In this document: in pieces, positions 1,022 through 18,441 of the stretch
Numbering within the stretch: the first letter of the stretch is position 1
Layout of the letters: each line of letters starts with the position of its first letter
DNA from: an uncultured Opitutales bacterium
GTDB taxonomy: Bacteria; Verrucomicrobiota; Verrucomicrobiia; Opitutales; Intestinicryptomonadaceae
Reading direction: 5' to 3'
DNA: 32,000 bases
NCBI GenBank assembly: GCA_934613415.1
Contig: CAKTSY010000002.1
Location: 210,001 to 242,000, forward strand
Position numbers and translations under genes: made by a program
Notes under the pieces: model-generated
What the model was told of the DNA's origin: nothing
Seen by the model: only the letters and a program-made list of their open reading frames with translations
Databases searched by the model: none

Positions 1022-1443
1022 ATTATTTTTACAATCCAGTCTTAAAATAGGCAAAAAATCAGAATTCATCAAGTCCTATTTACGGAACTAGAATGGAAGA
1101 AGTAGAAACAAATCTAGATGAGGCCTATTTAAACGAGTTTTTACGCATTTTATCTAAAATATCGTATTACTCTTGTTTTCCATTTGAAGCGTGGAAAATT
1201 CTATAATCATTAACTTACTAGCTTAAAACTTGATATAAATCTTGTGTGAGCAAAACATGAGTCGTTTCCCAATAATATCTTATTGTATAAATGCCCGAAA
1301 ATGTGCTGCTTTATTGGGGGTTGTTTGTCTGCCATAGTGTGGTTTAAGAAATATATAACTAGACAAAAATCACTAATATATGCCAATATTCTAATTATGA
1401 TTGACTTTATAGCTAAGCTATGGTCTCATTACAGCTTTATCCG

Positions 1444-1698: not shown

Positions 1699-2181
1699 TC
1701 ATTCCGCATTCCTCCCATAATTACGCTTCCAATAGCTTAATGCACTTTCAATGGAACTGTATAATTTGCCACCTTCGCGATTAGCCGAAGTGTCGTCAAG
1801 AATGCGTAATATAACCTCATCATGCCCTAAATTTTCTACTACCTTTTGCAGCGCTGGAATCTTCAAAAACTCGTCAATTAAAGACATCACCCATCTGCGC
1901 TTGCGAACGGAAAGTTTTGAAAATTCAAACTTGGCACAACGCTCACCTCCAAACATCTGAACCCAAATTTTGCAGGAAATCTTCTGATGATTGTTGTATT
2001 TGTCGGAAGCAAAATATCCGTCCAGACGAACCTTCCGCAAGCGATAGTAAAAATCGTTTCTCTGAACGATAACCCAAATCCCGACCGCCTTCATCGGCAG
2101 TTCGAAAATCTCCGCCATTTCAGGAGTAATCTTGAATTTCTCAAACCCGTCAGTTGATATCTTTGTCTTGCTTATCATCAT
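1699..2181 (-). CDS. Hypothetical protein, 160 aa, no recognisable motif
   Basis: ORF-track entry in the AT-rich block with a varied amino-acid composition. Its stop overlaps the ATG of the 65-aa ORF 1505..1702 as ATGA. Confidence 0.5.
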   Translation of the reverse strand: MMISKTKISTDGFEKFKITPEMAEIFELPMKAVGIWVIVQRNDFYYRLRKVRLDGYFASDKYNNHQKISCKIWVQMFGGERCAKFEFSKLSVRKRRWVMSLIDEFLKIPALQKVVENLGHDEVILRILDDTSANREGGKLYSSIESALSYWKRNYGRNAE

Positions 2182-2655: not shown

Positions 2656-4326
2656 TTATAATTTTATTCTTTCTGTCGTCTTGTAAAAATATTTTATAGA
2701 TTCATCAAAAATTATATCTATATCTTTTATTGCGTATTTGAGTGTTAAGTCTTCCAATCTTTTTGTTCTGCTCAATCCTACATATGTTTGTCCACTGGCA
2801 AACGGATTGGCTCCATCGTAATAAACTTTGTCTATCGTCTTGCCTTGTGCCTTATGTACAGTTGTCGCAAATGCAAGCTCCAAAGGGATTTGGTATATCG
2901 TATCCTTTATCTTAGATTTTAGTATATTCTTCCCTTCTTCATCCTTTTTTACTTCGTATTCGTATAAATCCCATTTGTAAGGTGTAACTCTTTCTGTTTT
3001 TTTTGTACTTAGCATTTCCACATCTACATAACAATCGGCATCTCCATTTTCTTTTATATCTCTTACAATTCCCATTGTCCCGTTGTATATTCCGTCAGAC
3101 ATATTTATTACAAACATCACCAACGCATCTCTTTTTAATGTTAAACACTGGGAAAACAAAATATCTTTAAAAACAGGATCGCCTTGCTGGCATTTGATTT
3201 TTCCGTTGAGGCTTGTTATTCGATAGGCATGAAAATTATATTCCTTGCTTTTTAAATTACTTAACGCATCCTGATTTACCGCATCTACATCTTTATTTCT
3301 ATGCATGAGTTTTAATGCATTTTTTGGAGCTTGGGCGGATACTCTGTCATTAAAAAATTTTAGAGTTTGCGTCAAATTGTTCCTATCGCGAATGTTATCT
3401 AAAAGAGAACAAAATTCTTTGTCGGCTCTATGTTGGTCTTCTAAGAACAACATTTCTATTTTCATATTTCTAAATACATCTGCCTTAAAAAAATAATCAT
3501 ACTCTCCTTCGTTTTTCTTCCCTTTTAGGTTAAGTATTTTCCCGTATTCTTTTGTTATGACAGGAGGTAGTTGATATAAATCACCAGCTACGACTAATTT
3601 TATTCCTCCAAAAGCCTTGTTTGAATTTTTCGCTTTTCGCAAAATCTCGTCTATACAGTCCATCATATAGGCACTAACCATAGAAATTTCATCTATAAGA
3701 AGGTATTTTGTTATATTTATTTTATCTTTTGCTTTTTCTATGGAATTTTTTATATCTGCCTTGTCTAATAACTTCGGCGGCAATTTAAAGAAACTATGTA
3801 TGGTTGCTCCGTGTATAATACTTGCAGAAACACCCGTTGGAGCTAAAAGTACGCATCCTTTCAATCTTAAAGACAGATGCTCTATAATGTACGATTTACC
3901 GCTTCCGGCATTGCCTGTAATGAAAAGAACTGAGTTGTCTCCTTCATTCTTTTTTAAATATTCTGCAACCTTTTCATATGATGGGTCTTTATTTTCATAA
4001 AGTTGGATATTTCGCCGTAGGTCTTCGTTTTCTTTTTGCAGGGCCTTATAATCTAATTTTAGCACATTGAACTCTTCGGATATTCTTTTTAATTCTTCGG
4101 TGTATTCTATTTTTTCCGCAAGGAGTTTGTTCTTTGTTTCTTCTATTTCCTTGCATTTCAAATCAAATAATTCTTGTGCGCGCAGATTTATTTTTTCTTG
4201 CGAAAGTGTAGAAAAATATACATGCGCAATAAATACAAAGCCTCCTATTAAAACAAAAAGAATGAACATCGCGTCTCCGCTCATGGAGTGTTTTGTCGCA
4301 AAAATTATAAAGAATTGATGCATCAT
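2656..4326 (-). CDS. PIF1/RecD-family (SF1B) DNA helicase with an N-terminal transmembrane helix and coiled coil
   Basis: Helicase motifs: I ITGNAGSGKSY; Ia LLAPTGVSASIIHGATIHSFF; II LLIDEISMV; III VVAGDLYQLPPV; a QHR...LLDNIR signature; V/VI AFATTVHKAQGKTID. The N-terminus has AMFILFVLIGGFVFIAHVYF, then ~90 aa of K/E/L-rich heptad-like sequence. The start could be M1 or M15 (4284). Confidence 0.85.
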   Translation of the reverse strand: MMHQFFIIFATKHSMSGDAMFILFVLIGGFVFIAHVYFSTLSQEKINLRAQELFDLKCKEIEETKNKLLAEKIEYTEELKRISEEFNVLKLDYKALQKENEDLRRNIQLYENKDPSYEKVAEYLKKNEGDNSVLFITGNAGSGKSYIIEHLSLRLKGCVLLAPTGVSASIIHGATIHSFFKLPPKLLDKADIKNSIEKAKDKINITKYLLIDEISMVSAYMMDCIDEILRKAKNSNKAFGGIKLVVAGDLYQLPPVITKEYGKILNLKGKKNEGEYDYFFKADVFRNMKIEMLFLEDQHRADKEFCSLLDNIRDRNNLTQTLKFFNDRVSAQAPKNALKLMHRNKDVDAVNQDALSNLKSKEYNFHAYRITSLNGKIKCQQGDPVFKDILFSQCLTLKRDALVMFVINMSDGIYNGTMGIVRDIKENGDADCYVDVEMLSTKKTERVTPYKWDLYEYEVKKDEEGKNILKSKIKDTIYQIPLELAFATTVHKAQGKTIDKVYYDGANPFASGQTYVGLSRTKRLEDLTLKYAIKDIDIIFDESIKYFYKTTERIKL

Positions 4327-4704: not shown

Positions 4705-6105
4705 ATGCCAAGAATAGGGATTACTGTTTATGATTTACTAATATCTTGTCCGGGAGATGTCTCTGATTATGTGAACATTGTAAACGAGTGTGTAGACGGA
4801 TTTAATCGTACATTAGGAGATATAAATAATGCTAAAATTGAAGCAAAGCATTGGTCAACGGATAGTTTCCCTGAGTCAGGAGATAAACCACAAGAGTTAT
4901 TAAACAAACAAATTGTGCGTGGTTGCGATGCGGCCATTGCAATTTTTTGGACAAAATTTGGGACTCCTACGGATAAATATGGCTCAGGTACTGAAGAAGA
5001 AATTGAAGAAATGTTATCTGCAAAGAAACAGATTTTCCTTTATTTTGTGAATGAGCCTATTAATCCTTCCGAATTGGACCAAAAACAATATAACAAGATA
5101 AAAGAATTCAAAGAGAAATATAAGGACAGGGGAATATATTGTGAAGTAAAAAATAAGGACGATTTTAGAACGCAATTCACTAATCATTTGACGATGTATT
5201 TCTTGCCAATAATAATGGGTAAAAACCAGAAAAATGCAGGAGTGGCAGCTCCCGTATTGCAAATACAAGATTATTATTCCGAAAAGAGAAATACGGCATC
5301 TATTCAAAATATCAAATTATTGGATTGGGAGTTAATAAAAGAAAAACATCAAAGTATTTGCACTCAAATAAAGAAATTAAATAAGGATTATTTACCTCAA
5401 CGTGTGCCAGCAAAAAAAGAAGTTAATGATATTGCAGGAATTTTAAAAATTCAAAATTCATTTTTGCCAACAAGATCAGATGTGTCGATATCTAAATCAA
5501 AGAAGGATACCATTTTAACATTTTGTCATCATAACTCTTTAGAAATCCCTGAACAATTTTGGAATTTGGGCGATTTAAAACAACAAACATCAAAATTGCC
5601 TTTTTCGCCATATTACAATAATAATTCGCTTGAAGGGACAGATGCGGAACAAGAACGTTATGAGGCCATAATAAACTTATATTCTGGCATTCTAAAATAT
5701 AACGAATATTATACATATTTTTCTCAAATAGAGAATCAAAGATTTGTATCATTGGTAATTGCAAATATCGGAGCGAGTTTTGATGAAGACATAGATGTCA
5801 AGTTGATTTTTGAAAAAGGTTGTATATTGGGACATCAAGACATCCCCTGCCCAGGACAACATATAATAGAAGATATATTAGAATCTCAATTCATAGAATC
5901 TATATATGGGATAGATGCGACCGACTCTATTTGTAAATATAGTGCTCATTCTATTATGCATGCTTATCTTGATCCGGATATTAAATATCCTTTCCCCCAA
6001 CTTTCCGAAAGTGAAAGATACGAAAATAGAAAACGTAGCTATAGAGACCATTTGGAAAATGTTTTATGTTATGAAATATACAAAAAAGGGGGAACGATAT
6101 TTTAA
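4705..6105 (+). CDS. Hypothetical protein, 466 aa; N-terminal ~170 aa resemble a TIR/DUF4062/nucleoside-deoxyribosyltransferase-like alpha/beta domain; the rest is unknown
   Basis: It is a long ORF divergent from the helicase. The N-terminal pattern is ITVYDLLISCPGDV ... CDAAIAIFWTKFGTPT..GSGTEEEIEEM..KKQIFLYF (strand, helix, strand, acidic G-[ST]-x-E-E, strand). I recognise no motif in the C-terminal 300 aa. The gene may be frameshifted at its 3' end (see findings). Confidence 0.6.
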   Translation: MPRIGITVYDLLISCPGDVSDYVNIVNECVDGFNRTLGDINNAKIEAKHWSTDSFPESGDKPQELLNKQIVRGCDAAIAIFWTKFGTPTDKYGSGTEEEIEEMLSAKKQIFLYFVNEPINPSELDQKQYNKIKEFKEKYKDRGIYCEVKNKDDFRTQFTNHLTMYFLPIIMGKNQKNAGVAAPVLQIQDYYSEKRNTASIQNIKLLDWELIKEKHQSICTQIKKLNKDYLPQRVPAKKEVNDIAGILKIQNSFLPTRSDVSISKSKKDTILTFCHHNSLEIPEQFWNLGDLKQQTSKLPFSPYYNNNSLEGTDAEQERYEAIINLYSGILKYNEYYTYFSQIENQRFVSLVIANIGASFDEDIDVKLIFEKGCILGHQDIPCPGQHIIEDILESQFIESIYGIDATDSICKYSAHSIMHAYLDPDIKYPFPQLSESERYENRKRSYRDHLENVLCYEIYKKGGTIF

Positions 6106-6371
6106 AATTTCACATACCATATCTAAAGCATAATACAAAAATGGCATTCCCTTCCGTTTTAATTCTAAAAAATCAACCAAAGAAGATAGAGTATGAAATT
6201 ACCTCAAAGCATATTTCTGATGTTATAAAAGGAGAAATCTCTTTTTCGCCTGAAAATCCAGTTTTATTGGAGCAGTGAGACAGAATCCGCAATTTATTTA
6301 GTGGCAAAGAGGGCTTGAAAGTTTTATGAAATGGTTTAAAGTCTATGGGTAGACTTATTAGAATAGGAAAT

Positions 6372-7976
6372 ATGGCAAAAAAGACTTCCGAAAAGGCTTT
6401 GAATATTGATAATATTCTGTTTAATTGCAGAGATATTTTGCGGGCGGCGCGCAATTCCGGATCGTTTTTTGAAAAACGCGATATGATGCTAACGCTCGTA
6501 TTCCTGCGTTTTATAGGCGAAAAATTTGAAGACGGCATTGAGAAACTCCGCCAAACATTAATCGAACAAGGCATTGACCCTGATGATGAAAACAACAAAG
6601 CCGCATTTTTTGACGATCCAAGTTTTGCGGACGGAACATATAATTTGGCGGTTGAAGCGCGTTGGGCAACCATTATAAACACACCTGCGCCCAATCTTAA
6701 TGTTGCGCTTGACACTGCTCTTCACAGCATTGCGACAGATTCAAAACAATTGAAAGGCTGTTTCGTAGAGGGTACTTTTACAACGCGCAATCTTGCTCCT
6801 AATGACATAAAGAAGCTTGTAGACGAGGTTAACAAAATTAGCCACAAAGCTTTTGGAGAGGAAAAAGACCTTATTGGGCGCGTATACGAATATTTTCTTA
6901 AAGAGTTTGCAGTAAATGCCACAAAGGAAGAAGGCGAATTTTATACTCCCCACGATGTTGTGCAGCTCATCGCATCCATGATAGAACCTTATGAAGGCAC
7001 ATTATATGACCCTGCTTGCGGTTCGGGCGGTATGTTTATTCAGAGCGCAGAACTTGTCAAATCGAGGCAAGGCGACATCAATCGAATCAACATATATGGT
7101 CAGGAAAAAGATGCCGCCACTTATCGTCTTGCAAAAATGAACCTTGCGCTTCGCGGGCTTAGCCACGATCTTGGAGAAACAAACGACTCTTCATTTACCC
7201 ACGATCTGCATAAGGGGCTTTATTTTGATTACATAATGGCGAATCCGCCATTCAATCTCAAGGGGTGGTATAACGATAACTTAAAAAATGATGCGCGTTG
7301 GGCTGATTATGCTGTGCCGCCGGAAAGCAATGCAAATTATGCTTGGATTTTACATATACTTTCCCACTTAAAACCTTCTGATGGGGTTGCCGGATTTTTA
7401 CTTGCAAATGGCGCGTTGAACGATAGCGATACCTTGGGAATTCGCCAAAAGCTAATTCAAAAAGACAAAGTTGAGGCAATCGTTGTTCTGCCGAGAGAAT
7501 TGTTTATCACTACAGATATCAGCGTTACGCTTTGGATTTTGAATCAGAATAAAAAAGGCGGCAAATACCACGGACGTAAACTGCGCAACCGCGAACATGA
7601 AATATTATTTATGGATTTACGCCAGTGGACGGAAAATCCCGTTAAAGGTGAAAACAAGAAGAAAGTTCGCTTGATAGCAGCGCAAATTGAAAAAGCGTCT
7701 AAAATTTACCATACTTGGCAAAGCGAAGGAACCAACGGAACAAAGTATGAAGTTCCTGAACTCTATCGCAGCGTGAATAAAACGGAAATAGAGCAAAAAG
7801 GCTGGGCGTTAACTCCAAGTAAATATATCGAATTCATCGACCACGACTTAGACATCGACTACAAAAAGGAAATGTCGCGCATTCAAGCTGAAATGCGTGA
7901 AATCCTAAAGCAAGAAAAGAAATCCCAGCAAATGCTGGAAGACGCATTTAAGGGTATAGGCTATGGCATTGAGTAG
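6372..7976 (+). CDS. hsdM: Type I R-M DNA methyltransferase subunit HsdM
   Basis: Motifs FYTPHDVV, YDPACGSGGMF and FDYIMANPPFN, plus NANYAWILHIL. The preferred start is the ATG at 6372 (MAKKTSEK), preceded by AGGAAA. The track ORF starts at 6345. Confidence 0.93.
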   Translation: MAKKTSEKALNIDNILFNCRDILRAARNSGSFFEKRDMMLTLVFLRFIGEKFEDGIEKLRQTLIEQGIDPDDENNKAAFFDDPSFADGTYNLAVEARWATIINTPAPNLNVALDTALHSIATDSKQLKGCFVEGTFTTRNLAPNDIKKLVDEVNKISHKAFGEEKDLIGRVYEYFLKEFAVNATKEEGEFYTPHDVVQLIASMIEPYEGTLYDPACGSGGMFIQSAELVKSRQGDINRINIYGQEKDAATYRLAKMNLALRGLSHDLGETNDSSFTHDLHKGLYFDYIMANPPFNLKGWYNDNLKNDARWADYAVPPESNANYAWILHILSHLKPSDGVAGFLLANGALNDSDTLGIRQKLIQKDKVEAIVVLPRELFITTDISVTLWILNQNKKGGKYHGRKLRNREHEILFMDLRQWTENPVKGENKKKVRLIAAQIEKASKIYHTWQSEGTNGTKYEVPELYRSVNKTEIEQKGWALTPSKYIEFIDHDLDIDYKKEMSRIQAEMREILKQEKKSQQMLEDAFKGIGYGIE

Positions 7977-9087
7977 GCTCAAACTTGGGGACTTGATTGA
8001 ATTATGCGAATCAAAGAATGAGGATTTGCAGTATAGCATCAATGATGTAAAAGGAATCTCCATCCAAAAAAAATTCATTGAAACAAAAGCTGATATGACA
8101 GATGTGTCTCTAACCCCATATCTCTTGGTAAGACCTGATGACTTTGCTTTCGTTACTGTTACATCTCGCAACGGAGAAAAAATCACTTTAGCACATAATA
8201 CAACAAATAAAACATATATAGTATCCTCATCTTATGTTGTATTCCATGTAAAAGACAAAGAACTCCTCTTATCTGATTTTCTATTTATGTATTTTAATCG
8301 GCCAGAATTTGACCGTTATTCGCGTTTTAATTCTTGGGGATCTGCGAGAGAAACTTTTAGTTGGGAAGATATGTGCGATATTGAAATCGATCTTCCACCG
8401 CTTCCAATTCAGCAGAAGTATGTTGATGTTTATAATGCAATGCTTGCGAATCAAAAAAGTTACGAACGTGGTTTGGACGATTTGAAGCTTGTTTGCGATG
8501 CCTATATTGAAGAGTTAAGGCGTAAAATGCCGTGCGAGACTATTGGAAAATATCTTGAAGAAGTAAGCGAACCAAATACAAACAAAAAATACACTGATGT
8601 ACAAGGTGTTGAATCTACATGTACTTTTATAGATACTCGTGCAAATATGCAGGGAGTTGACATTAGAAAATACACGATCGTGCGAAAAGGGACATTTGTA
8701 TATAATCCATCTCGAATAAATATAGGTTCAATTGCACTTTATCCTAATGAGTCACCTTGTATTGTTTCCCCTATGTATTCTGTATTTAAGATAACTTCTT
8801 TAGAAAAAATATTACCAGAATATTTGATGTTATGGTTTGAGAGAACTGAATTTCAAAGACAAACATGGTATTATGCTGCTGGTTCGGTAAGAGATACTTT
8901 TGACTTTAATTTAATGAAAGAGGTAAAAATTCCATTACCAACAATAGATATACAAAGCGATATAGTAAATATCTTTAACGTGTACAAAAATCGCAAAGCG
9001 ATCAACGAAAAGTTAAAAGTCCAGATAAAAAATATCTGCCCGATACTAATAAAAGGTTCAATCGAAGAAGCAAGGAAGGCTGGATAA
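7963..9087 (+). CDS. hsdS: Type I R-M specificity subunit HsdS with two target-recognition domains
   Basis: It overlaps the hsdM stop by 14 nt and sits between hsdM and hsdR. It has a two-fold repeated architecture with conserved helical spacers (LPPLPIQQKYV... and IPLPTIDIQSDIV...). It is AT-richer than its neighbours, as is typical of TRDs. Confidence 0.88.
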   Translation: MALSRLKLGDLIELCESKNEDLQYSINDVKGISIQKKFIETKADMTDVSLTPYLLVRPDDFAFVTVTSRNGEKITLAHNTTNKTYIVSSSYVVFHVKDKELLLSDFLFMYFNRPEFDRYSRFNSWGSARETFSWEDMCDIEIDLPPLPIQQKYVDVYNAMLANQKSYERGLDDLKLVCDAYIEELRRKMPCETIGKYLEEVSEPNTNKKYTDVQGVESTCTFIDTRANMQGVDIRKYTIVRKGTFVYNPSRINIGSIALYPNESPCIVSPMYSVFKITSLEKILPEYLMLWFERTEFQRQTWYYAAGSVRDTFDFNLMKEVKIPLPTIDIQSDIVNIFNVYKNRKAINEKLKVQIKNICPILIKGSIEEARKAG

Positions 9088-9090
9088 TTC

Positions 9091-12000
9091 ATGGCTAAGC
9101 TAAAAGAATTCAATAGACATTACTGCGAATCGGAATATGAGTATGCCTTTATTGCGTTCTTAGAGTCGGCTGACTGGATCTATTCTTCGGGCAATAAAAT
9201 AGCGCGTACAACAAAAAGAGATGTGTTAATCTCTGATGATTTCAAAAAATTCATAGCCAAGACAAATCCCGATTTAACCGAAGATGAAATCAATAGAATC
9301 TTCGATAATCTTCGTTTGATCGGCAGCGAAAGCGATTTTTCAACCTTGCACAAAGTCTATGGCTGGATGGTAAACGGAATTCAATTCACTCCCCAAAACG
9401 GACTGGCAAGAATGATTCCGTTAATCGATTTTGAAAGTCCTGCCAACAACATCTTCCGCGTAGTAAATCAGTTTGTTGTAGAATACACAAACAATGGGCA
9501 GAAAGAAACCCGTAGGCCGGACATTCTTTTGTTCGTAAACGGTATGCCGCTATGCGTAATTGAGCTGAAAAATCCTGCGGACGCAAACGCAACTATATTT
9601 GATGCTTGGGAGCAAATCAACATACGCTACTGGCGAGACATTCCGCATCTTTTGCATTACTGCCCGTTGGCTTGCATCTCTGACGGTGTAAAAACGAGGC
9701 TGGGAACTGTTCGCACGCCTTATGAGCATTTTTACGCTTGGAGACGCGTAAACGACGGAGATAATGTTTCTACGCTTCCGTTTGAAGAGACTGAAACGAT
9801 GATAAAAGGAGTCTATGCGCCTTCACGTTTCCTTGAAATTTTCAGAGATTACATTTATTTCCAAGATGCCATTTACGACAGCGACGAGAGGGAAATTGTA
9901 TGCCGCTATCCGCAATTTTTCGCGGCAAAACTTTTAAAGCAGAGCATCGTAAAATCAGTTGTAGAAAAAAGCGGCAAAGGCGGAACGTACTTTGGCGCGA
10001 CAGGTTGTGGCAAAACCTACACAATGGCATTCTTGGCACGCCAACTCGCCCTTCGGTGTACCGATATTCCCGAAATAGGCTCTCCGACAATTATTCTAAT
10101 CGTAGACAGAGACGACCTGCAAAAACAAGGCGCAAAGCTCTTTACAAAAAGTAAGGAATTTTTGAATCTTGGCGAAGTATCCATTGTAAAAAATAGAGCC
10201 CATTTAAGACAAGAGCTCGCCGCAAGGCAAAGCGGCGGTTTCTATATCTGCACCATCCAAAAATTCTGCGACCGAAAGGATGATAAAATTGGGCTTATAA
10301 ACGATAGGCGTAATATTATATGCTTTTCAGACGAAGCCCATCGAAGCCAAATCGAGCATTCAAAGAAGATTCAGTTCAGCAAAGACGCTGACGAGAATAT
10401 GAAGGCAATGGTTTCTAAGCCTTACGCAAAGGTCTTAAAAGAAGCCTTCCCTCGGGCTACTTTTGTTGGTTTTACGGGGACGCCCATCGCGGAAACTTAT
10501 CAAACTTTCGGCAATGAAATTGACCGTTATACAATGGACCAGGCTGTTGCGGACGGTTTGACGGTTTCGATAAAGTATCATCCAAGGATAGCAAAAATCT
10601 TGCTTGATAATAAAAAAATACAGGAGATTGAAGCCTATTACAAAAAATGCGCCGACGACGGAGCAACTCTTGAAGATGTAGAGGCAAGCAAAAAAGCAAT
10701 GAGCTCTATGGAGCTTATTCTGGGCGAACCTTTGCGCTTGGAACGGCTTGCCGTAGATATTCACGACCATTATCTTTCCTCTTGCGCAAACGATCCCGAC
10801 AGGATCCAAAAAGCAATGGTCGTTTGCTCAAACAGAAAAATTGCCTATGCCTTATTAAAAGAGTTCAGGGCTAAATATCCGGAATGGTTCGAAGAAAAGA
10901 AATCGCCTGATGGTATTTTCGTAACGGAAGATGAGCTTAAGGAATTAAAGCCGATGCCGTTTATCGCAATGGTATCAAGCGTGGGAAGCAATGATGAGGC
11001 TGAAATGTACAACTATCTTGGCGGCGTTCGCAATGACAAGCGTTCGGAAGAATTGGATGCGGCTTTCAAACAGGAAAAATCGAATTTTCGCATTGTTATT
11101 GTGGTTGATATGTGGATTACCGGTTTCGATGTGCCTTCTCTAACATATTTATATAACGATAAACCTCTAAAAAAGCATCTGTTAATACAAACGATAAGCA
11201 GAGTTAACAGAAAATATCCGGGTAAAGAATATGGCATGATTATAGACTATATAGGCATTCGCGATAATATGCGGGAAGCTATGAAGGTCTATGGCGGCAA
11301 TACTTCTGTTGCTCCGACATCAGACGATGTGGAACAAGCGACGCAAATTTTCAGGGAAGAGCTTGAAATACTAAAAAAACTATTTGTTAATTATGATTTG
11401 ACGCCGTTTTTAGATCCTAATTGCGATCCGATTGAACGCTACAAATTGCTCGCAAAAGCTGCCGAATATGTGTTTTTGTCCACGCAGAGTTTGCGCTTGT
11501 CCGATGGCGATATGGCTCGGAATGTTTCATTTAAAACTTATTTCTTAAAAACCGTAAAAAGAATGAGAGCCGCTTATGACGTTTGCCAGCCTTCGGGAAA
11601 TCTTGGAGAAGAGGAATCCGCGCTGGCACAGTGTTTTATGGCAATAGCGGGTTTTGTCCGCAAAATGAACGGAACAAGCGAAGTTGATGCCGATACAATG
11701 AACCGCACAGTTTCAAAAATGGTGGAAGAAGCCTTAAAATACAATCAAGTGGAAAGTATTCTTGCGGGCGGCGAAGAGGAAGATATCTTCTCTCCCGAAT
11801 ATTTTGAAAAGCTGTCTGACGTTAAAATGCCGGCGACAAAATTAGAGCTTCTGGTTAAAATGCTGCGCAAGGAGATTAAAGAGTACGGAAAAGTAAATCA
11901 GGTTGCCGCCAAGAAATATCAAGAAATGTTGGAAAAAACAATTAAGGAATATCACGAAAGGAGAAAACATCTTGATATTGAAGAAGCGGGCGAAGCCCAA

Positions 12001-12420
12001 GAACGCGCGTCGGAAGACATCCTCCAAAGTGCTACAAAACAAGCTTTAGACATTCTCTCACAAATGAAAGAGAGTAGAGAAAGTTTTAGAAAGATAGGCT
12101 TAACTTTTGAAGAAAAAGCTTTTTACGACATTTTAATCGCATTGCGCGACCAGTATAATTTTGAGTACGGAACAGATAAAAATTTAGGCGGTGTCATTAT
12201 TAACGATAAATGCAAAATACTGGCTAAAAAAATTAAGGAAATAATCGACACAAAATCTTCATTCGCGGATTGGCTTAATAACCAGAATGTCCGCAACCAA
12301 CTAAAACTTGAAATCAAAATTTGTTTAGTCCAAAGCGGATATCCACCGCAATATAGTCCGGAAGTATTCAGCAAAGTTATGGAGCAAGTCGAGAATTTTG
12401 AGGAAAATTCAGCAACTTGA
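9091..12420 (+). CDS. hsdR: Type I restriction endonuclease/translocase subunit HsdR
   Basis: It has a PD-(D/E)xK nuclease motif RRPDILLFVNGMPLCVIELK, Walker A GATGCGKTYT and a DEAH box FSDEAHRSQ. The C-terminal region (EKAFYDIL...) is typical of HsdR. Confidence 0.93.
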   Translation: MAKLKEFNRHYCESEYEYAFIAFLESADWIYSSGNKIARTTKRDVLISDDFKKFIAKTNPDLTEDEINRIFDNLRLIGSESDFSTLHKVYGWMVNGIQFTPQNGLARMIPLIDFESPANNIFRVVNQFVVEYTNNGQKETRRPDILLFVNGMPLCVIELKNPADANATIFDAWEQINIRYWRDIPHLLHYCPLACISDGVKTRLGTVRTPYEHFYAWRRVNDGDNVSTLPFEETETMIKGVYAPSRFLEIFRDYIYFQDAIYDSDEREIVCRYPQFFAAKLLKQSIVKSVVEKSGKGGTYFGATGCGKTYTMAFLARQLALRCTDIPEIGSPTIILIVDRDDLQKQGAKLFTKSKEFLNLGEVSIVKNRAHLRQELAARQSGGFYICTIQKFCDRKDDKIGLINDRRNIICFSDEAHRSQIEHSKKIQFSKDADENMKAMVSKPYAKVLKEAFPRATFVGFTGTPIAETYQTFGNEIDRYTMDQAVADGLTVSIKYHPRIAKILLDNKKIQEIEAYYKKCADDGATLEDVEASKKAMSSMELILGEPLRLERLAVDIHDHYLSSCANDPDRIQKAMVVCSNRKIAYALLKEFRAKYPEWFEEKKSPDGIFVTEDELKELKPMPFIAMVSSVGSNDEAEMYNYLGGVRNDKRSEELDAAFKQEKSNFRIVIVVDMWITGFDVPSLTYLYNDKPLKKHLLIQTISRVNRKYPGKEYGMIIDYIGIRDNMREAMKVYGGNTSVAPTSDDVEQATQIFREELEILKKLFVNYDLTPFLDPNCDPIERYKLLAKAAEYVFLSTQSLRLSDGDMARNVSFKTYFLKTVKRMRAAYDVCQPSGNLGEEESALAQCFMAIAGFVRKMNGTSEVDADTMNRTVSKMVEEALKYNQVESILAGGEEEDIFSPEYFEKLSDVKMPATKLELLVKMLRKEIKEYGKVNQVAAKKYQEMLEKTIKEYHERRKHLDIEEAGEAQERASEDILQSATKQALDILSQMKESRESFRKIGLTFEEKAFYDILIALRDQYNFEYGTDKNLGGVIINDKCKILAKKIKEIIDTKSSFADWLNNQNVRNQLKLEIKICLVQSGYPPQYSPEVFSKVMEQVENFEENSAT

Positions 12421-13036: not shown

Positions 13037-13215
13037 TGCATACTCTTAAAATTGATGAGGGCGTTTTTGCGAGTATTTCGCAAGGCAAAAATGGGAAGGG
13101 TTTGGTAAGAATTTTACCGAATTTTCGGTATATTATTAACGACTTACAAAACTTTTCCGATTTCCATAAGAATGAAAGCAAAACGGCAATATACTAAGCA
13201 AGAAAAACTTATCCG

Positions 13216-13287
13216 CGCCCCCACCGTGAATCGAACACGGATTTGGCGTTTAGGAAACGCTCGTTCTATCCGTTGAACTACAGGGGC
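13216..13287 (-). tRNA. tRNA-Arg, anticodon CCU, complete, no encoded CCA
   Basis: Reverse complement: GCCCCTG-TA-GTTC-AACGGATA-GAAC-G-AGCGT-TTCCTAA-ACGCC-AAAT-CCGTG-TTCGATT-CACGG-TGGGGGC-G. This folds as a cloverleaf with a 7-bp acceptor stem (two G-U pairs), 4-bp D stem, 5-bp T stem and T-loop TTCGATT. The anticodon stem has an A27.C43 mismatch. Confidence 0.85.
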
Positions 13288-13367: not shown

Positions 13368-13430
13368 GCCTATTTACCTATTTGCCGAGTTGGTTAGCGT
13401 CAATACCTATTTCTCCTATTTGCCTATTTT
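13368..13430. repeat. CCTATTT heptamer array, 5 perfect copies, inverted relative to 13011-13036
   Basis: Copies lie at 13369-75, 13377-83, 13406-12, 13415-21 and 13423-29. The last copy abuts the stop codon of the DUF3987-like gene. Confidence 0.85.
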
Positions 13431-14893
13431 CAGAACGGCATATCGTCGTCATCATCGACTTCTATTCCAAGCGCCTTTTTAGCCTCGGAGATTCTATCTT
13501 TCAAGACAACGTATCGCCCTTTACCCTTTTTTAGGATTTCATAAAGATTGGGGAACGTATGCACGATAAATTCCACCCTTTCAGTTCGCAAACTGGAATA
13601 TTGGTCAAAAAAGCTAATCTTCTTATAGAAACCGTCGTTTTGGCGAATCATAGCGTCCATTTTTGCTCTGTCGTTTTCGATTTCTGGAAGCATTCCGCTT
13701 GAGAACAAAACCACCGAAACGCAGATTGAATACGACACCACCCTGCATGCGCGTTTTGCGATGTTGGCGGTGATTCGGTCCGCGCCTTCAGCCTGCGCGA
13801 AAATAACCGCAAGCCTGATTGCGTTTTCCCTTGCCTTGCCAAGCAAAGAAGCCTGCGTGCGCAGTTTGCCGTTCATAAGATGCGTGTTGAATGCGTCGAA
13901 GTCCCAGAAATACTCGAAGACGTCTTGGTCGGTGTCAAACCATACTGGCAGGCCTTTCTTGCGGGTTTGGTAGGTTTGAGCAAGAAGGTTTTCCCATTTG
14001 AGAATTACGGCTTCGTCAAGCGGGATAATTTCTTTCGAGTCTGGAATGGCCTTTGGAGCGCCTTTGCAGTAGAGGAATCTTCCAAGAAACCCGCTGCCGA
14101 TAAAGCTGCCTTTGTTCTTTGAAACGATGTTGTCGATGACGTCGTTTTGCACCATCCAAAGCAGGGAAATGCAGGGATTGGGAACGCTTGAAATCCCGTT
14201 TACAATTCGGTTGTGCTTTATGGGCTCGCCGCACCAGCCGCTGTTTAGCGTTTCGGTGTCGTCGCCTTGCTTGCGATAGTTGCCCGCCACAATGTAGATG
14301 CTGTCGCGGGCTTCCTCGCATACCGAAAAAATTTCGCCGCCGCTTGCTTCCATCGCCTTTATCATGGCTTCCGACGTTGAATTTTTCACGATGAAGTCGG
14401 GGTTTCTCGGGGGCTTGGGAGTGTCCGCAATTTCGTCGTCAAGGCCCAATTTGTCCTCGCCGTTAAGCTTGTCCTGCATGAGCTTTGCCTTCGCTTTCTT
14501 GAATTTCTCAAGCTCCTTTTTGTATTCGGAGATTTCGTCCAAAACCCTTCTTTCCAAATTGGAGAAAAGGGCGCGAATGCTTGCGCTTTTGCCAGTGGAG
14601 CTTTCGCCCACGCCTAGGACAAAGATATTCCCTGTTTGCGTGTATCCGCCGCTTACTGCGTTTTTCGCCTTGAACACTCTGCCCATAGCGCCGCTTAAAA
14701 TTCCGCAGGCGCAGAAGCAAAGAAGCTCCATTGGCAGATTTCTGCCAACGGAATACGTTCTTGCGACGTCGCGGATAGGTTTCGGGAAGGCGTCAATGGG
14801 GCATTCGCTTTCGTAAAACTCTTTGTAGGCTTCCGAAAGCGTCTCCATGGTTGCAAAAAATTGCGGAGTTTTTTGTGCCACGAACCTAGACAT
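13430..14893 (-). CDS. DUF3987-like (YfjI-type) putative helicase/replication protein of integrative elements
   Basis: PIDAFPKPIRDVARTYSVGRNLPMELLCFCACGILSGAMG...NIFVLGVGESSTGKSA matches the DUF3987 pattern as I remember it. The preferred start is MSRFVAQK at 14893, which overlaps the upstream stop as ATGTCTAG. The track ORF extends to 15019. Confidence 0.75.
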   Translation of the reverse strand: MSRFVAQKTPQFFATMETLSEAYKEFYESECPIDAFPKPIRDVARTYSVGRNLPMELLCFCACGILSGAMGRVFKAKNAVSGGYTQTGNIFVLGVGESSTGKSASIRALFSNLERRVLDEISEYKKELEKFKKAKAKLMQDKLNGEDKLGLDDEIADTPKPPRNPDFIVKNSTSEAMIKAMEASGGEIFSVCEEARDSIYIVAGNYRKQGDDTETLNSGWCGEPIKHNRIVNGISSVPNPCISLLWMVQNDVIDNIVSKNKGSFIGSGFLGRFLYCKGAPKAIPDSKEIIPLDEAVILKWENLLAQTYQTRKKGLPVWFDTDQDVFEYFWDFDAFNTHLMNGKLRTQASLLGKARENAIRLAVIFAQAEGADRITANIAKRACRVVSYSICVSVVLFSSGMLPEIENDRAKMDAMIRQNDGFYKKISFFDQYSSLRTERVEFIVHTFPNLYEILKKGKGRYVVLKDRISEAKKALGIEVDDDDDMPF

Positions 14894-15674
14894 TTTCCAC
14901 CTCTCCCCAAGCTGTGTTGCCGTTTTGGCATTGTGCGATGAGCGTCTGAGAAATTTCGGAATCCTCAAACGGCTTGTAATGCCTGAACGAGAAAACCGAC
15001 TCCTCTTTCGTCCCCACAAGCACCGACATTATGTTTGCATAAACACCGATAGCCTTTCCGCCCATGCACCATTTTGCGGGGTGAATCCTTTTGCTCCAAA
15101 ACATCGGCTTGTCGAAGTGGTGGATCAAGACCATTGCAAAGTTGTGCTTCGATTTTAGCCCGTTTATTTTGCAAAAGAGGTCGGCAACTGCCGCATGGTC
15201 TGAAAAGTTGCAATGCACAAACGACGACAGCGAATCCACAATTACCACATCGTACTTGCCCGCGCTTAAAGAAGCGTCCAGTTTCGATATGAATTCGTCC
15301 ACCGAATAATATCGGCCTGTTTTGCAGCGGAAGCGGAAATTATTTTCCATAATTTCGCAAAAGTCCGCCTTTTTATCGAGTTCAAATTGCGAAACGATAT
15401 CGTCTAAGTAGATCTTCTCGTCGGCAATCGGGTTTTCGGAATGGAGCAAGAGGGTCTTGGCGGGGCGGACAATATCAAGCCCCAATGTTTTTTCGCCAAG
15501 GGCGAGGCTTGCGGCAAGCTGCATTGCAAGAACGCTTTTGCCGATTCCGCTCGCGCCCGAAATTACCCACGTCTGCCCTTTGCTTAAAAAGTCCTTCTCG
15601 ATTATAACGCCGTCAAAACCGAAAATGGATTCGTTTTCTTCGGCTAAAATTTGGCTTATCGTGCGAATTCTCAT
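14886..15674 (-). CDS. RecA-like AAA ATPase (AAA_25/RepA-like)
   Basis: It has Walker A GASGIGKS and Walker B VVIVDSLSSF, followed by LIHHFDKP. Its start overlaps the upstream HTH gene stop by 1 nt (TAATG). Confidence 0.75.
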   Translation of the reverse strand: MRIRTISQILAEENESIFGFDGVIIEKDFLSKGQTWVISGASGIGKSVLAMQLAASLALGEKTLGLDIVRPAKTLLLHSENPIADEKIYLDDIVSQFELDKKADFCEIMENNFRFRCKTGRYYSVDEFISKLDASLSAGKYDVVIVDSLSSFVHCNFSDHAAVADLFCKINGLKSKHNFAMVLIHHFDKPMFWSKRIHPAKWCMGGKAIGVYANIMSVLVGTKEESVFSFRHYKPFEDSEISQTLIAQCQNGNTAWGEVENV

Positions 15675-15931
15675 TAGATTTCTCCTTTCTTCGCGCTTTT
15701 GGCGGGGCGGACTATAAAGCAGTGGTCAAGCAGGACGTCGCAATCGCTTTTCTTGTAGCGAATGCACTTGCCCGAAAGACGGTAGCTCGGCAGTTTGCCC
15801 TGTCTGCGGAGCTGCTCAATAAAGGTTGTGCCAATATTGAGATACTCCGCCACCTCTGCGCGTGTAAAAAGCCTGTCGCTTGCGTCAGGCTGCGTTAATG
15901 TTTGAGTTTTTGCGGATTTTTTCTTTTCCAT
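15674..15931 (-). CDS. Excisionase/AlpA-type helix-turn-helix DNA-binding protein
   Basis: LFTRAEVAEYLNIGTTFIEQLRRQGKLPSYRLSGKCIRYKKSD is typical of the HTH_17/Xis family. The preferred start is MEKKKSAK at 15931; the track ORF starts at 16057. Confidence 0.7.
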   Translation of the reverse strand: MEKKKSAKTQTLTQPDASDRLFTRAEVAEYLNIGTTFIEQLRRQGKLPSYRLSGKCIRYKKSDCDVLLDHCFIVRPAKSAKKGEI

Positions 15932-16343
15932 GCAGAATGTCCGCGTGTCAAATTTTTCAAAAATTAATAGCCGCAAAATTGCGAAAAAAATCGAATTGGA
16001 AGGCGAAAAAAATAGTTGGGAAAGTGGTTTCCCAAAGAAGGCGGAAAAACGACACAAAAATAAAAGTGTGTCGATTTTGGATTATATGGCGCAAAAATAT
16101 TCGGCAAAAATTGCTTGGTCGGGGGAAATGTTTCACTGGTGATACAAATGGGAATTCCAAGATATAAACTTCCATTTTCCGCAAAATTTACCGCGTGTTC
16201 CGTTTTTTTAGATCATTTATTTATCCTATTGAAAAACGGCCAAATAGAATTTCTTAAATGGTCTATTATCAAATGGTAATAGGATTAAAAATAAATGGAT
16301 TGTTCAGCTTGACTTGAAACGCTTTTTATACATTTTTCGTTTC

Positions 16344-17060
16344 ATGATAAAGCGGACAGTAGAGGAACAAATTCTTAGAACAATCAGTTTTTTGGAAAGC
16401 GGCAGGGTGTTTTCGTCAACAGATTTTGCGGACATCGCAAACCAAAACACAATCAGAACGGCGTTAAGGCGTCTTACTCTGGCAAAGAAAATCGACGCCC
16501 TTGGGCATTCTCTATATTATAAGCGAATCTGCACAAAAGAATTTCCCTATGGATATAGGCCAAAACATCAATCCATTGCCAATGCCATAGCGCGAAGATT
16601 CTCTTGGAAGATTTTTCCGACGCTGTCTTACACGTTTGCGTATTTTTCGTTGCGCAAAGACGGCGACCGCATATTCCCAAGCTCGGGGCCAAATAAAAAA
16701 TTTGAGTTCAATTCTTTCGCATTTCAGGGAATCGTTGAATTTAGGCATATCCCGCTTAAATTGTCCCGAATTGCCGACAAGAAAGCCTTTATGTACGTTC
16801 AAGCCCTTGTAGCCTTTGGCGAAGATTCCGAAGAAATGAAGCGCATATTTGCAAAGACTTCCACAGAGGATTTGAAAACAGTCATCAGAAAAATAACCTA
16901 TGCGCCGCTAAGAATCCAGAATGTGTTTTTAAAAGAGCTTAAATCGAGGGATAACGGCAAGTCGAATTCAGGAGATGCGAATGCTGAAAACATCAACAAC
17001 GCCTTTAATAAAGTGCAAGAAAAGCGAAAGCTTGCCAGAATATTTCGCAGCTTGTCATAG
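16344..17060 (+). CDS. AbiEi-antitoxin-like/DUF6088-like putative transcriptional regulator
   Basis: The N-terminus, IKRTVEEQILRTISFLESGRVFSSTDFADIANQNTIRTALRRLTLAKKIDALGHSLYY, resembles the winged-helix AbiEi_4/DUF6088 pattern. No AbiEii partner gene is seen. The start is either 16314 or 16344. Confidence 0.5.
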   Translation: MIKRTVEEQILRTISFLESGRVFSSTDFADIANQNTIRTALRRLTLAKKIDALGHSLYYKRICTKEFPYGYRPKHQSIANAIARRFSWKIFPTLSYTFAYFSLRKDGDRIFPSSGPNKKFEFNSFAFQGIVEFRHIPLKLSRIADKKAFMYVQALVAFGEDSEEMKRIFAKTSTEDLKTVIRKITYAPLRIQNVFLKELKSRDNGKSNSGDANAENINNAFNKVQEKRKLARIFRSLS

Positions 17061-17134
17061 CTTGTACGTTACTTGTATGTTACTTGTATGTTTTGGAGCG
17101 ATTATTCACGTTTCCCAAATCGACATATTCTCAT

Positions 17135-17154
17135 ATTCCGCACATGTGCGGAAT
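17135..17154. terminator. Perfect 20-nt palindrome ATTCCGCACATGTGCGGAAT between convergent genes; either a hairpin terminator or a protein-binding site
   Basis: Read directly. It lies between the stop of the DUF6088-like gene (17060) and the stop of the integrase gene (17170). No strong T-run follows it. Confidence 0.4.
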
Positions 17155-17169
17155 TTGGAATGCCCGCTG

Positions 17170-18441
17170 TTATTCTTCTGGCAGAATATCAAAATATTTT
17201 ATGGCGTCTTTTTCGCGGGCAAGGCCGTTGTAGTGCTGTTTTAGGACATCTACGGCGTGTCCCATTTGCTCGGCGGTTAGGTATGCGTTCTTTGTCAGCG
17301 CAAGGTAGTATGTCGCCGCTGAATGGCGCAGTCCGTTCTTTATCCAGTTGCCTTTGCCGAGGCTCTCGTGAAGCTTTTTTAGCACTGGAACTTTTCGCCT
17401 TGTAAGGATCTTTTTCTTTGTGCCGAGATCCCAGACGTACGGTTCGAGCCATTTCGCCAAGTTTTCAGGAATCTTTACGATTCTGCGCGATGCCGTTTTT
17501 GTTATTTCGCTGTCGAGTATGATTTCTCGGTCGTCGAGCCTTATTTTGTCCCAAGTCAGCCTTTTTAGCTCGGCGTTGCGTATTCCTGTAAAGGCGGCGA
17601 TGGCCGTAAATGCGCGGATTTCGCTTTGCGGCGGCGTGGAGTTTAGAATTTTTCGCACCTCGTCGGGCGTGAATATTTGGGGCGTTCTGCCCCTTGCTCG
17701 CCAGCTTTCCACTTTCTCAACGGGGTTGACGTCGAGCCAGTCCTGCATCTTGCAAAATTTGAAGAAGGAATAGAGCGTGCGCCTGTATTCGTTTCTCGAG
17801 TAAATCCCCAAGTCTTTCTGCGTTTCCTTGAAAACCTTCATGGGGCGTCCGTCAACTGTCAGCGTGTCGCTGTCGTCGTATTCGCGCTTTTTGAGGTTTA
17901 TGAGCCATTGGAAGATTTCCCTGCCAGTTATGAGCGAGACTATTCTCTCCTTGCCGAAATCGCCCATGAAGCGGGCAAGAGTGCGCTCGACCCCTGTGAC
18001 ATACTCGCTCGACAGCTCCTTTTTCAAGAGCGTATAGCAGTATTTGTCGATGGCGAAGTCCAACCTTGCGGAGCGTTCCTTTAGCTTTGCGAGCGATTTG
18101 TACTCCTCTATGGCTTGGCTTAGGCTGATTCCGAGCGACTGCAAATCATTCGTAAGCTTCACGTAGGTGAGGACGGCGTTTGTAAGCGACACCCGCAAAG
18201 GGGAAAGCAGCATCTTTGCCTCGACCAGTTCGCGCCTGTCGTTTGGCGAAATCCTGTCGGCTTCGACGCCGAGCTTTTCGTCGTAAACATTTTTCTCACG
18301 GAAAAATTCGAGGGCTTCGGCTTCGGTTGAAAACCTGCGCGCCCATCGTTTTTGCTTTTCTGTGTCGAAATAGTAAACGACCCAGCGCTCGCGGTTTTTC
18401 TCTGCAACTTTTTTTGGAAAGGAAGGTGATCTATTCTTCAT
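17170..18441 (-). CDS. int: Tyrosine site-specific recombinase (integrase)
   Basis: The C-terminal catalytic residues are recognisable: GIRNAELKRL (Arg), GLRHSAATYY (His-x-x-Arg) and GHAVDVLKQHY (His...Tyr). The gene is 100 nt from the right junction. Confidence 0.9.
   Translation of the reverse strand: MKNRSPSFPKKVAEKNRERWVVYYFDTEKQKRWARRFSTEAEALEFFREKNVYDEKLGVEADRISPNDRRELVEAKMLLSPLRVSLTNAVLTYVKLTNDLQSLGISLSQAIEEYKSLAKLKERSARLDFAIDKYCYTLLKKELSSEYVTGVERTLARFMGDFGKERIVSLITGREIFQWLINLKKREYDDSDTLTVDGRPMKVFKETQKDLGIYSRNEYRRTLYSFFKFCKMQDWLDVNPVEKVESWRARGRTPQIFTPDEVRKILNSTPPQSEIRAFTAIAAFTGIRNAELKRLTWDKIRLDDREIILDSEITKTASRRIVKIPENLAKWLEPYVWDLGTKKKILTRRKVPVLKKLHESLGKGNWIKNGLRHSAATYYLALTKNAYLTAEQMGHAVDVLKQHYNGLAREKDAIKYFDILPEE

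Follow-up and report, generated by a model that had tools for sequence, protein, structure and literature searches.

A frameshifted member of a candidate single-protein anti-phage family combining a DUF4062-type head with an undescribed tail module

DUF4062 was identified as an immune effector with TIR-like NADase activity only in 2026 (Osinski et al., bioRxiv 2026, Swarozyc, 10.64898/2026.05.01.722283), and DUF4062 domains work in two single-gene abortive-infection systems, Swarozyc and Evangelion (10.64898/2026.05.01.722283; 10.64898/2026.06.25.731849). In the Swarozyc protein KpSwz, E97 is needed for defence, NAD+ is lowered and the auxiliary region is required (10.64898/2026.05.01.722283). 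The Evangelion protein Eva01 of plasmid pMW2 comprises a DUF4062 core and a required AUX region (Ibarra-Chavez et al., bioRxiv 2026, 10.64898/2026.06.25.731849); it needs F11, E87 and W162, and NAD+ drops on infection (10.64898/2026.06.25.731849). Here we analyse a gene from an uncultured Opitutales bacterium, located in a 32,000-nucleotide stretch of contig CAKTSY010000002.1 (GenBank assembly GCA_934613415.1, positions 210,001 to 242,000). This whole stretch is called the window, and coordinates are window positions unless another contig is named. We propose that the locus is probably a frameshifted member of a single-protein anti-phage (abortive-infection) family with a DUF4062-type head and an undescribed tail, because of the homology of the head, its conserved Glu, the modular tail, the lack of a partner gene and the defence and mobile-element context of its relatives. 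An initial annotation, made from the sequence alone, had described a 466-aa protein with a TIR/DUF4062-like N-terminal domain; its interpretation is essentially right apart from a missed frameshift. The gene and its parts are as follows.

4705..6278, forward strand: the gene as read if intact, ~524 aa, with a DUF4062-type head, a stalk and a C-terminal module; interrupted by a 1-nt deletion
4705..6105, forward strand: open reading frame (ORF) of the initial annotation, 466 aa plus stop; the last five residues, GGTIF, are out of frame
4723..5214, forward strand: DUF4062-type, TIR-like domain, residues ~7-170, five β/α units
4849..4893, forward strand: highly conserved loop at the 'BB-loop' position, H49-W-S-T-D-S-x-P-x-S-G-D-K-P-Q63, linking strand B to helix B
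4984..5010, forward strand: candidate active-site motif S94-G-T-E97-E98-E99-I-E101-E102; the E99 codon, 4999-5001, aligns with Eva01 E87
5245..5409, forward strand: 'stalk' of a β-hairpin and a long helix, residues ~181-235; basic, isoelectric point (pI) 9.2; common to nuclease-headed relatives
5470..6086, forward strand: in-frame part of the C-terminal module, residues ~256-461, with an α/β subdomain, a 30-residue helix and the start of a β-sandwich
6082..6087, forward strand: frameshift site, an A6 run followed by G5 (6088-6092); A7 in intact relatives
6087..6278, forward strand: lost C-terminal segment, 63 codons in the +1 frame with TGA at 6276-6278; missing from the 466-aa product

In its layout the family resembles KpSwz, a single polypeptide in which an N-terminal DUF4062 TIR-like domain with a catalytic Glu (E97 in KpSwz) is followed by a small β element and helical stalk, and then by a C-terminal auxiliary sensing domain. 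In the window-family model, a β-hairpin and a long helix come directly after the head, a likeness to the intertwined sheet and stalk of KpSwz that is drawn by description only. Occurrence in defence islands and spread by horizontal gene transfer are further features in common with Swarozyc. However, the auxiliary domain of KpSwz has been described as a compact winged-helix/helix-turn-helix (HTH) fold that binds phage portal, whereas the window-family tail, again compared by description, has ~345 aa and is rich in β-sandwich; moreover, the assayed Swz proteins are gammaproteobacterial and the window family comes from Bacillota. Eva01, which we identified as the 324-aa DUF4062 protein of pMW2 beside cadD and bla (WP_000072390.1; Pfam score 91.8 bits), is similar in that one gene, carried on mobile elements, encodes both a DUF4062 core and an essential, diversified AUX region; its catalytic-Glu motif aligns with that of the window family. 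It differs in its length of 324 aa and in its AUX region, which has no similarity to residues 181-524 (BLASTP and hhalign align the head only); its head is remote (23.7 bits), F11 and W51/E52 are not conserved, and Eva01 has no PADLOC PDC-S60 match. Membership of the Eva01-type Evangelion (type 1) was rejected because the tail is different.

PDC-S60 (PDLC05050) is a computational candidate system of PADLOC, whose first ~176 positions match the head; an Enterococcus plasmid DUF4062 protein matches the same region. Nothing past position 176 of 906 matches, so that the architectures differ and only the head is shared, and membership of PDC-S60 was rejected because the window family does not match the full 906-position profile. 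In the literature searched, we found no paper naming PDC-S60 and none further on Swarozyc. The effector heads of Cap4-type CBASS, Lamassu LmuA and the Schlafen-like PDC-S50 also occur fused to the window-family tail. In CBASS and Lamassu, such heads are paired with SAVED domains or LmuB/C, whereas with the window-family tail they have no partner gene. By sequence comparison, the window family appears distinct from Eva01 and PDC-S60, and it seems set apart from Swarozyc by description. The new element is the tail module with its promiscuous effector pairing, which we did not find described in the literature searched.

The ATG-initiated ORF of 466 aa at 4705-6105 on the forward strand is present in the window, and 1244 relatives were found among 5.8 billion proteins at E ≤ 1e-3, with top identities of 96%, 87% and 72%. 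The ORF thus belongs to a genuine gene, as annotated, but its end had been misplaced. Almost all homologues have 516-535 aa, and with the frame corrected the alignment to them spans their full length. After ...YEIYKKGGTIF*, the +1 frame reads RGNDILKFHIPYLKHNTKMAFPSVL...IEYEITSKH... to the TGA at 6276-6278, matching the 524-aa relative P0001. In the DNA alignment, the window has TAC-AAAAAA-GGGGG (A6), compared with A7 in the 96%-identical contig L023. The stop at 6105 is therefore due to a 1-nt deletion in the A-tract, and the real gene extends over 4705-6278. The lost segment contains the invariant residues Y473, P483, Y497 and S501 and the nearly invariant residues L474, K475, H476 and N477. 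According to the AlphaFold2 model and the alignment, it also takes in several β-strands of the C-terminal fold, which are the best conserved in the module.

NCBI, ENA and Logan contain the exact 466-aa product on 18 contigs, as many as for hsdM and hsdR of the island; the repaired (A7) window sequence is not on record among the contigs of these three resources. Members of the 90% cluster containing the window protein are mostly 524 aa long. On these three grounds, a real, recent and lineage-specific mutation is more likely than a one-off assembly error, although a miscall repeated through re-assembly of the same reads may account for the frameshift. According to the frame analysis, slippage by −1 on the A6 run would bring back the intact reading ...YKKRGND.... 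Programmed frameshifting or phase variation is unsupported, as the DNA alignment shows no homopolymer at the frameshift position in the 87%-identical relative (L001). A promoter and terminator scan of the AT-rich surroundings of the gene gave no informative signal.

The Pfam scan of the window protein returned one weak match, to DUF4062 (PF13271), at 19.4 bits over residues 46-101. DUF4062 was also the sole recurrent Pfam family among diverse relatives, 31 of 32 of which matched it at E ≤ 0.01. P0257, a protein of a sister branch with the same architecture (~542 aa, 53% head identity), reaches 27.3 bits and clears the Pfam gathering cut-off of 24.7 bits, and several close relatives carry a precomputed PF13271 annotation; the weak match of the window protein is thus not a chance hit. 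With PADLOC, residues 8-175 match positions 4-176 of the 906-position PDC-S60 model (E = 6e-34). A tblastn search with P0001 against 72,556 plasmids matched residues 6-165 to annotated DUF4062 genes with E values of 1e-11 to 1e-24 and identities of 29-36%, including those of Priestia, Synechococcus pANL and Enterococcus (131 records), among others. A hidden Markov model (HMM) of the head scored 132.9 bits for the Synechococcus, 127.5 bits for the Priestia and 73.8 bits for the Enterococcus protein, and 23.7 bits for Eva01 (Staphylococcus aureus pMW2). Homology to accepted DUF4062 proteins therefore covers the whole ~160-residue domain by both tblastn and the head HMM. No match to the canonical TIR families (Pfam TIR and TIR_2) was obtained at E ≤ 0.1 with the window protein, the NCBIfam scan of this protein returned nothing, and PDB sequence and profile searches gave noise only.

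All of the motifs quoted in the initial annotation are present: ISCPGDV (13-19), CDAAIAIFWTKFGTPT (74-89), GSGTEEEIEEM (93-103) and KKQIFLYF (107-114). Residues S94, G95, E97, E98, E99 and E102 are invariant in 114 family sequences, and T96 and E101 nearly so; S94-G-T-E97-E98-E99 thereby reproduces the conserved-Glu signature S-x-T-E-x-E ('acidic-SYT'). The stretch S94-G-T96-E97-E98-E99 pairs with Eva01 S82-Y-T84-E85-M-E87 in the BLASTP, hhalign and HMM alignments, while a MAFFT alignment places Eva01 two residues shifted at the Glu motif. Since the S-x-T register and the Pfam coordinates favour E99, this residue is the favoured equivalent of Eva01 E87; the GTEEE motif suspected of harbouring a catalytic Glu thus contains one that aligns with an experimentally required Glu. 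The alternation of strands and helices read from the N-terminal sequence is also seen in the AlphaFold2 model of P0001 (114-sequence alignment; mean predicted local distance difference test (pLDDT) score 80.2), which has five β/α units over residues 7-170. In this model the Glu cluster opens helix C after a low-confidence loop, with E99 at the N-terminus of the helix. The H49-Q63 loop has low pLDDT, and Q63 aligns with the Q of the Eva01 Q/W/E motif.

Taken together, these comparisons support the assignment of residues ~7-170 to the DUF4062 superfamily and identify the head as a divergent DUF4062 domain closer to the PDC-S60/Enterococcus/Synechococcus group than to Eva01. Of the fold classes first named for the head, DUF4062 is borne out by the Pfam matches of relatives, PADLOC, tblastn and the HMM, whereas TIR was not specifically recovered by Foldseek. 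The proposed effector class, targeting of NAD+, agrees with the demonstration in both 2026 preprints that DUF4062 is a TIR-like NADase in anti-phage defence. The same head is also fused to a response-regulator receiver domain (PF00072) in P0211 and ~25 similar Lachnospiraceae proteins of ~298 aa, which suggests phosphorylation-controlled versions of the effector.

Residues ~181-524, which include the motifs FWNxGNLK and NxGxTFDEDIDVK (within 5470..6086), have no match in Pfam, NCBIfam, PADLOC or PDB sequences. The annotated remainder of the protein had likewise been said to match nothing, which holds for these resources and for Foldseek against PDB and BFVD; it is nonetheless a conserved and widespread module. 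A plasmid match confined to residues 281-512 led to a 562-aa Priestia ORF, the last ~340 residues of which are homologous to the tail of the window gene (BLASTP E = 2e-18); over its first 200 residues, this ORF hits the PADLOC CBASS 'Effector - Endonuclease' model (E = 3.5e-39). A tail-only profile (alignment A4) searched against 1.84 billion cluster representatives matched 778 proteins at E ≤ 1e-3, of which 267 reach E ≤ 1e-30, the representatives being those of clusters at 50% identity. We classified the heads of 321 proteins carrying the tail module. A DUF4062-like head is present on 267 of these, a Cap4-like endonuclease head on 10 (PADLOC CBASS 'Effector Endonuclease', E ~ 4e-39), a Schlafen AlbA_2 head that also matches the PDC-S50 head on four, an LmuA-like head on one, and a CAP12/Pycsar-type TIR head on another (23.8 bits, just below the cut-off). 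Two heads were unrecognised and 35 proteins were headless or fragments; the remaining one, P0283 (353-aa partial match), one of nine 'other heads', lay outside the head scan. The tails of the nuclease-headed relatives retain no invariant catalytic-looking motif, and the C-terminal module is acidic (pI 5.6).

Sensing or regulatory modules are typically marked by such a pairing of one conserved tail with several unrelated defence-typical heads. Because unrelated effector heads swap on the same tail, the comparison points to the tail as a shared sensor or regulator. The suggestion that the remainder of the protein could be a sensor thereby gains indirect support from effector swapping and from the defence and mobile-element neighbourhoods described below. 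A tail-only model built from 25 sequences (pLDDT 83.9; predicted template modelling (pTM) score 0.80) begins with a β-hairpin and long helix, from which a disordered linker leads to an α/β subdomain containing a 30-residue helix; the C-terminal part is β-rich. Foldseek returned nothing for this model against BFVD. The Cap4-like endonuclease head occurs on the same tail in Priestia plasmids L011 (5029-10823) and L013 (10001-15681). This variant adjoins a large DUF4942 methyltransferase in both plasmids, an SMEK-domain protein matching the PADLOC Aga_REase-PNTD model in L011, and a 629-aa PAPS_reduct protein in L013; the Priestia loci look like a plasmid defence cluster.

Relatives were found in 167 of 185,579 species genomes, a patchy distribution; all 80 of the 167 genomes that were listed and named are Bacillota, including many mitis-group streptococci, Streptococcus pneumoniae, Lachnospiraceae, Oscillospiraceae, Bacillaceae and Peptoniphilaceae. 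Every relative from the species genomes has at most 57% identity to the window gene. The phage genome collection contains no homologue, so that the gene is not phage-borne there. As the initial annotation had expected of homologues, defence and mobile genes recur nearby, according to PADLOC and Pfam in a survey without controls. A Tissierella locus has nSTAND, two SIR2 genes, HerA and ThsA-Macro in its vicinity, and an Aerococcus locus has DUF262 with type IV secretion system (T4SS) genes. Single loci of other distant relatives contain NUDIX with PLD-helicase, type IIG restriction-modification (RM) with T5orf172, PemK with a recombinase, or, within an integrative and conjugative element (ICE), TraG, relaxase and serine recombinases; one distant relative is inserted beside a tRNA-U5 methyltransferase gene.

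In 75 loci, the 405 neighbouring ORFs scatter over 296 clusters, so that no partner gene is conserved. The commonest among 144 non-redundant nearest neighbours were Phage_integrase (7), tRNA_U5-meth_tr (6), Resolvase (4), PD-T4-6-type protein kinases (4), superfamily 1 (SF1) helicases (4), N6_Mtase (3, two with HsdM_N), Schlafen (3) and Mokosh MkoA (3, best E = 2.4e-180). With defence and mobile neighbours in this uncontrolled survey, a patchy distribution and effector exchange, the family shows the general features of a defence system. At one syntenic site, ~15 mitis-group streptococci including S. pneumoniae (L045-L060 and others) have the gene beside guaA (GMP synthase), and in other lineages it lies directly downstream of the tRNA-U5 methyltransferase gene (6/144 non-redundant neighbours); both sites look like insertion hotspots.

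Based on these findings and by analogy with KpSwz and Eva01, we propose a plausible mechanism for the intact family. The protein would be held inactive by its tail until the tail recognises a phage-derived trigger. The tail would then drive oligomerisation or rearrangement, by which the heads could re-associate into an active arrangement, and E99 would hydrolyse NAD+. NAD+ depletion would cause the infected cell to die or arrest before the phage matures, and the infection would be aborted. More tentatively, and with less than even confidence, we suggest that the ~345-residue tail is a new and widespread infection-sensing domain, different from the auxiliary domains of both Swarozyc and Evangelion and presumably responsive to another phage trigger. 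It would define its own family of single-protein systems and recruit four or more classes of effector head (DUF4062/TIR-like, Cap4/LmuA-type nuclease, Schlafen and Pycsar-type TIR). Hundreds of Bacillota lineages, among them mitis-group streptococci and S. pneumoniae, have the DUF4062 effector type joined to this different, undescribed module, which is also wired to nucleases and Schlafen domains. If the tail is a sensor, the family offers a compact one-gene system for finding a new phage trigger and would show how one sensing scaffold activates chemically unrelated effectors.

Several observations weigh against this proposal. Both the window protein and P0001 (19.2 bits) fall below the Pfam DUF4062 cut-off, low scores that are explained by the Pfam model missing about half of the ~164-residue domain (Osinski supplement, 10.64898/2026.05.01.722283). 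The protein resembles Eva01 only weakly (BLASTP E = 0.13; hhalign probability 14%); Eva01 F11 faces an invariant Leu12, and of the Q/W/E motif (Q50-W51-E52 in Eva01) only Q63 is kept (Q63-E64-L65), so that two of the three motifs are not conserved. Foldseek against PDB gave no match for the head at E ≤ 1e-3, with Ras-like folds leading and TIR-STING ranking 12, 17 and 20; as this fold search did not single out TIR, the head assignment is one made from sequence. The fold of the tail is uninformative, Foldseek against PDB giving insignificant β-sandwich matches (alpha-2-macroglobulin receptor-binding domain, E = 3.5e-3), and the case for a putative sensor role of the tail is one of architectural logic only. 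In addition, the neighbour survey is qualitative, with no matched control set, and the supporting literature consists of two unreviewed preprints. Finally, the window copy itself, with its last ~60 conserved residues gone, is probably inactive, given that truncating the auxiliary region abolishes the function of both Eva01 and KpSwz.

That last point leads to a reading that concerns this copy alone and that we consider fairly probable: in the window genome, the gene is a decaying pseudogene without present function, whatever the intact family does. It is supported by the A6 versus A7 deletion, by the invariant residues and several module β-strands held in the lost segment, by the recurrence of the exact 466-aa product on as many contigs (18) as hsdM and hsdR with the repaired form absent, and by the loss of defence in truncated Eva01 and KpSwz. 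However, the rest of the ORF is free of other lesions and shares 96% identity with intact relatives, so any inactivation must be recent; a homopolymer miscall repeated in re-assemblies of the same reads is possible, and a low-level full-length product from a −1 slip on A6 is conceivable. For the intact protein, it is unlikely, though worth weighing, that the head is not an NADase and instead acts on another nucleotide substrate, as a nucleoside 2-deoxyribosyltransferase (NDT) or nucleotide hydrolase, or makes a signalling nucleotide. DUF4062 occupies sequence space between the TIR and NDT clans, one source names the relative P0172 'nucleoside 2-deoxyribosyltransferase', the Q/W/E and aromatic motifs differ from those of Eva01, and Eva01 itself perturbs several adenine metabolites, its NADase role being known indirectly. 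Yet the DUF4062 domains assayed in vitro, KpSwz and TEP1, turn NAD(P)+ into ADP-ribose (ADPR) and nicotinamide and nothing else, and there is no separate downstream effector gene to read a signal.

A role of the family outside defence, for example in NAD-linked signalling or regulation with an incidental location on mobile elements, appears very unlikely. The fusion of the same head to a receiver domain in ~298-aa proteins would suit such a role, as would the housekeeping genes adjoining some loci (tRNA methyltransferase; guaA in streptococci). Nevertheless, the alternative heads (Cap4-like and LmuA-like nucleases, Schlafen, Pycsar-type TIR) all belong to the hallmark effectors of defence, the distribution is patchy in the manner of horizontal transfer, known defence genes recur nearby, and the housekeeping neighbours fit insertion hotspots. 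More improbable still is an accessory role, in which the protein would be a subunit of the neighbouring type I RM system or Pif1-like helicase. The order Pif1-like helicase, gene, hsdM-S-R is kept in the window and five related contigs, with a gap of only ~66-92 nt before hsdM; this synteny, however, is limited to one mobile-element lineage at ≥72% identity, members at 33-57% identity have unrelated neighbours, and N6_Mtase accounts for only 3/144 of these. We accordingly rejected a multi-gene system that would include the Pif1-like helicase or the type I RM genes, since the synteny does not extend beyond one element lineage. We thus retain the single-protein abortive-infection family as the preferred reading of the locus.

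The gene rides on a 31%-GC integrative island in the genome of an Opitutales (Verrucomicrobiota) bacterium, together with the following features.

2656..4326, reverse strand: Pif1/RecD-like SF1 helicase, the divergent neighbour, beside the gene only in closely related islands
6345..12420, forward strand: type I RM operon directly downstream, with hsdM (6345-7976), hsdS (7963-9087) and hsdR (9091-12420)
13215-13287: tRNA-Arg(CCT), within the island between hsdR and the DUF3987 gene
13430..18441, reverse strand: island mobility and replication genes, a span that includes DUF6088 on the forward strand
13430-15019, reverse strand: DUF3987, island gene
14886-15674, reverse strand: AAA_25, island gene
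15674-16057, reverse strand: HTH_17, island gene
16314-17060, forward strand: DUF6088, island gene
17170-18441, reverse strand: tyrosine integrase, island gene

From ~1385 to ~18583, the window has 77-94% DNA identity to metagenomic contigs L001-L004 and L023, which carry the same element. GC content is 31% around the gene and 31-42% over the island, compared with 45-50% in the flanks, whose core proteins share ≥90% clusters with proteins of an Opitutales metagenome-assembled genome. Since the family is otherwise found in Bacillota and the island resides in an Opitutales genome, the island looks like a horizontal import into its Verrucomicrobiota host. The window would thus record gene transfer from Bacillota to Verrucomicrobiota on a small integrative element, followed by a recent inactivation through homopolymer slippage, as a snapshot of defence-gene turnover. 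No convincing att-site direct repeats were found around the island. L002 and L004 repeat segment 13250-14119 at both ends, which may reflect a circular form of ~13-14 kb.

Related islands carry a Fic gene after hsdR, where the window has none. The helicase at 2656-4326 (reverse strand) has an N-terminal extension of ~100 residues in which a hydrophobic stretch and a coiled-coil-like segment occur. Among PADLOC models, this helicase hits PDC-S68, PDC-M16A and type IV CRISPR RecD, and it may itself be a defence candidate. A 160-aa ORF at 1699-2181 (reverse strand), without a family match, is kept beside the helicase in all related islands, and window positions 1-1380 (~1.4 kb, GC 46%) contain no long ORF.

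Two further DUF4062 loci were noted. The nearest Salmonella match, L021 (7986-9712, Salmonella Senftenberg), is a DUF4062-like head in a 190-aa ORF that is cut by an IS3 transposase and closes a capsid-portal-terminase block, a place where prophage or satellite cargo is typically found. An Enterococcus faecium plasmid (L012, 4992-7585) encodes a 333-aa DUF4062 protein that probably belongs to the Evangelion-type Enterococcus lineage. It is flanked by a RelE/ParE toxin-antitoxin (TA) pair on one side and a protein with a canonical TIR domain on the other, and a type I HsdR gene and several insertion sequence (IS) elements are close by.

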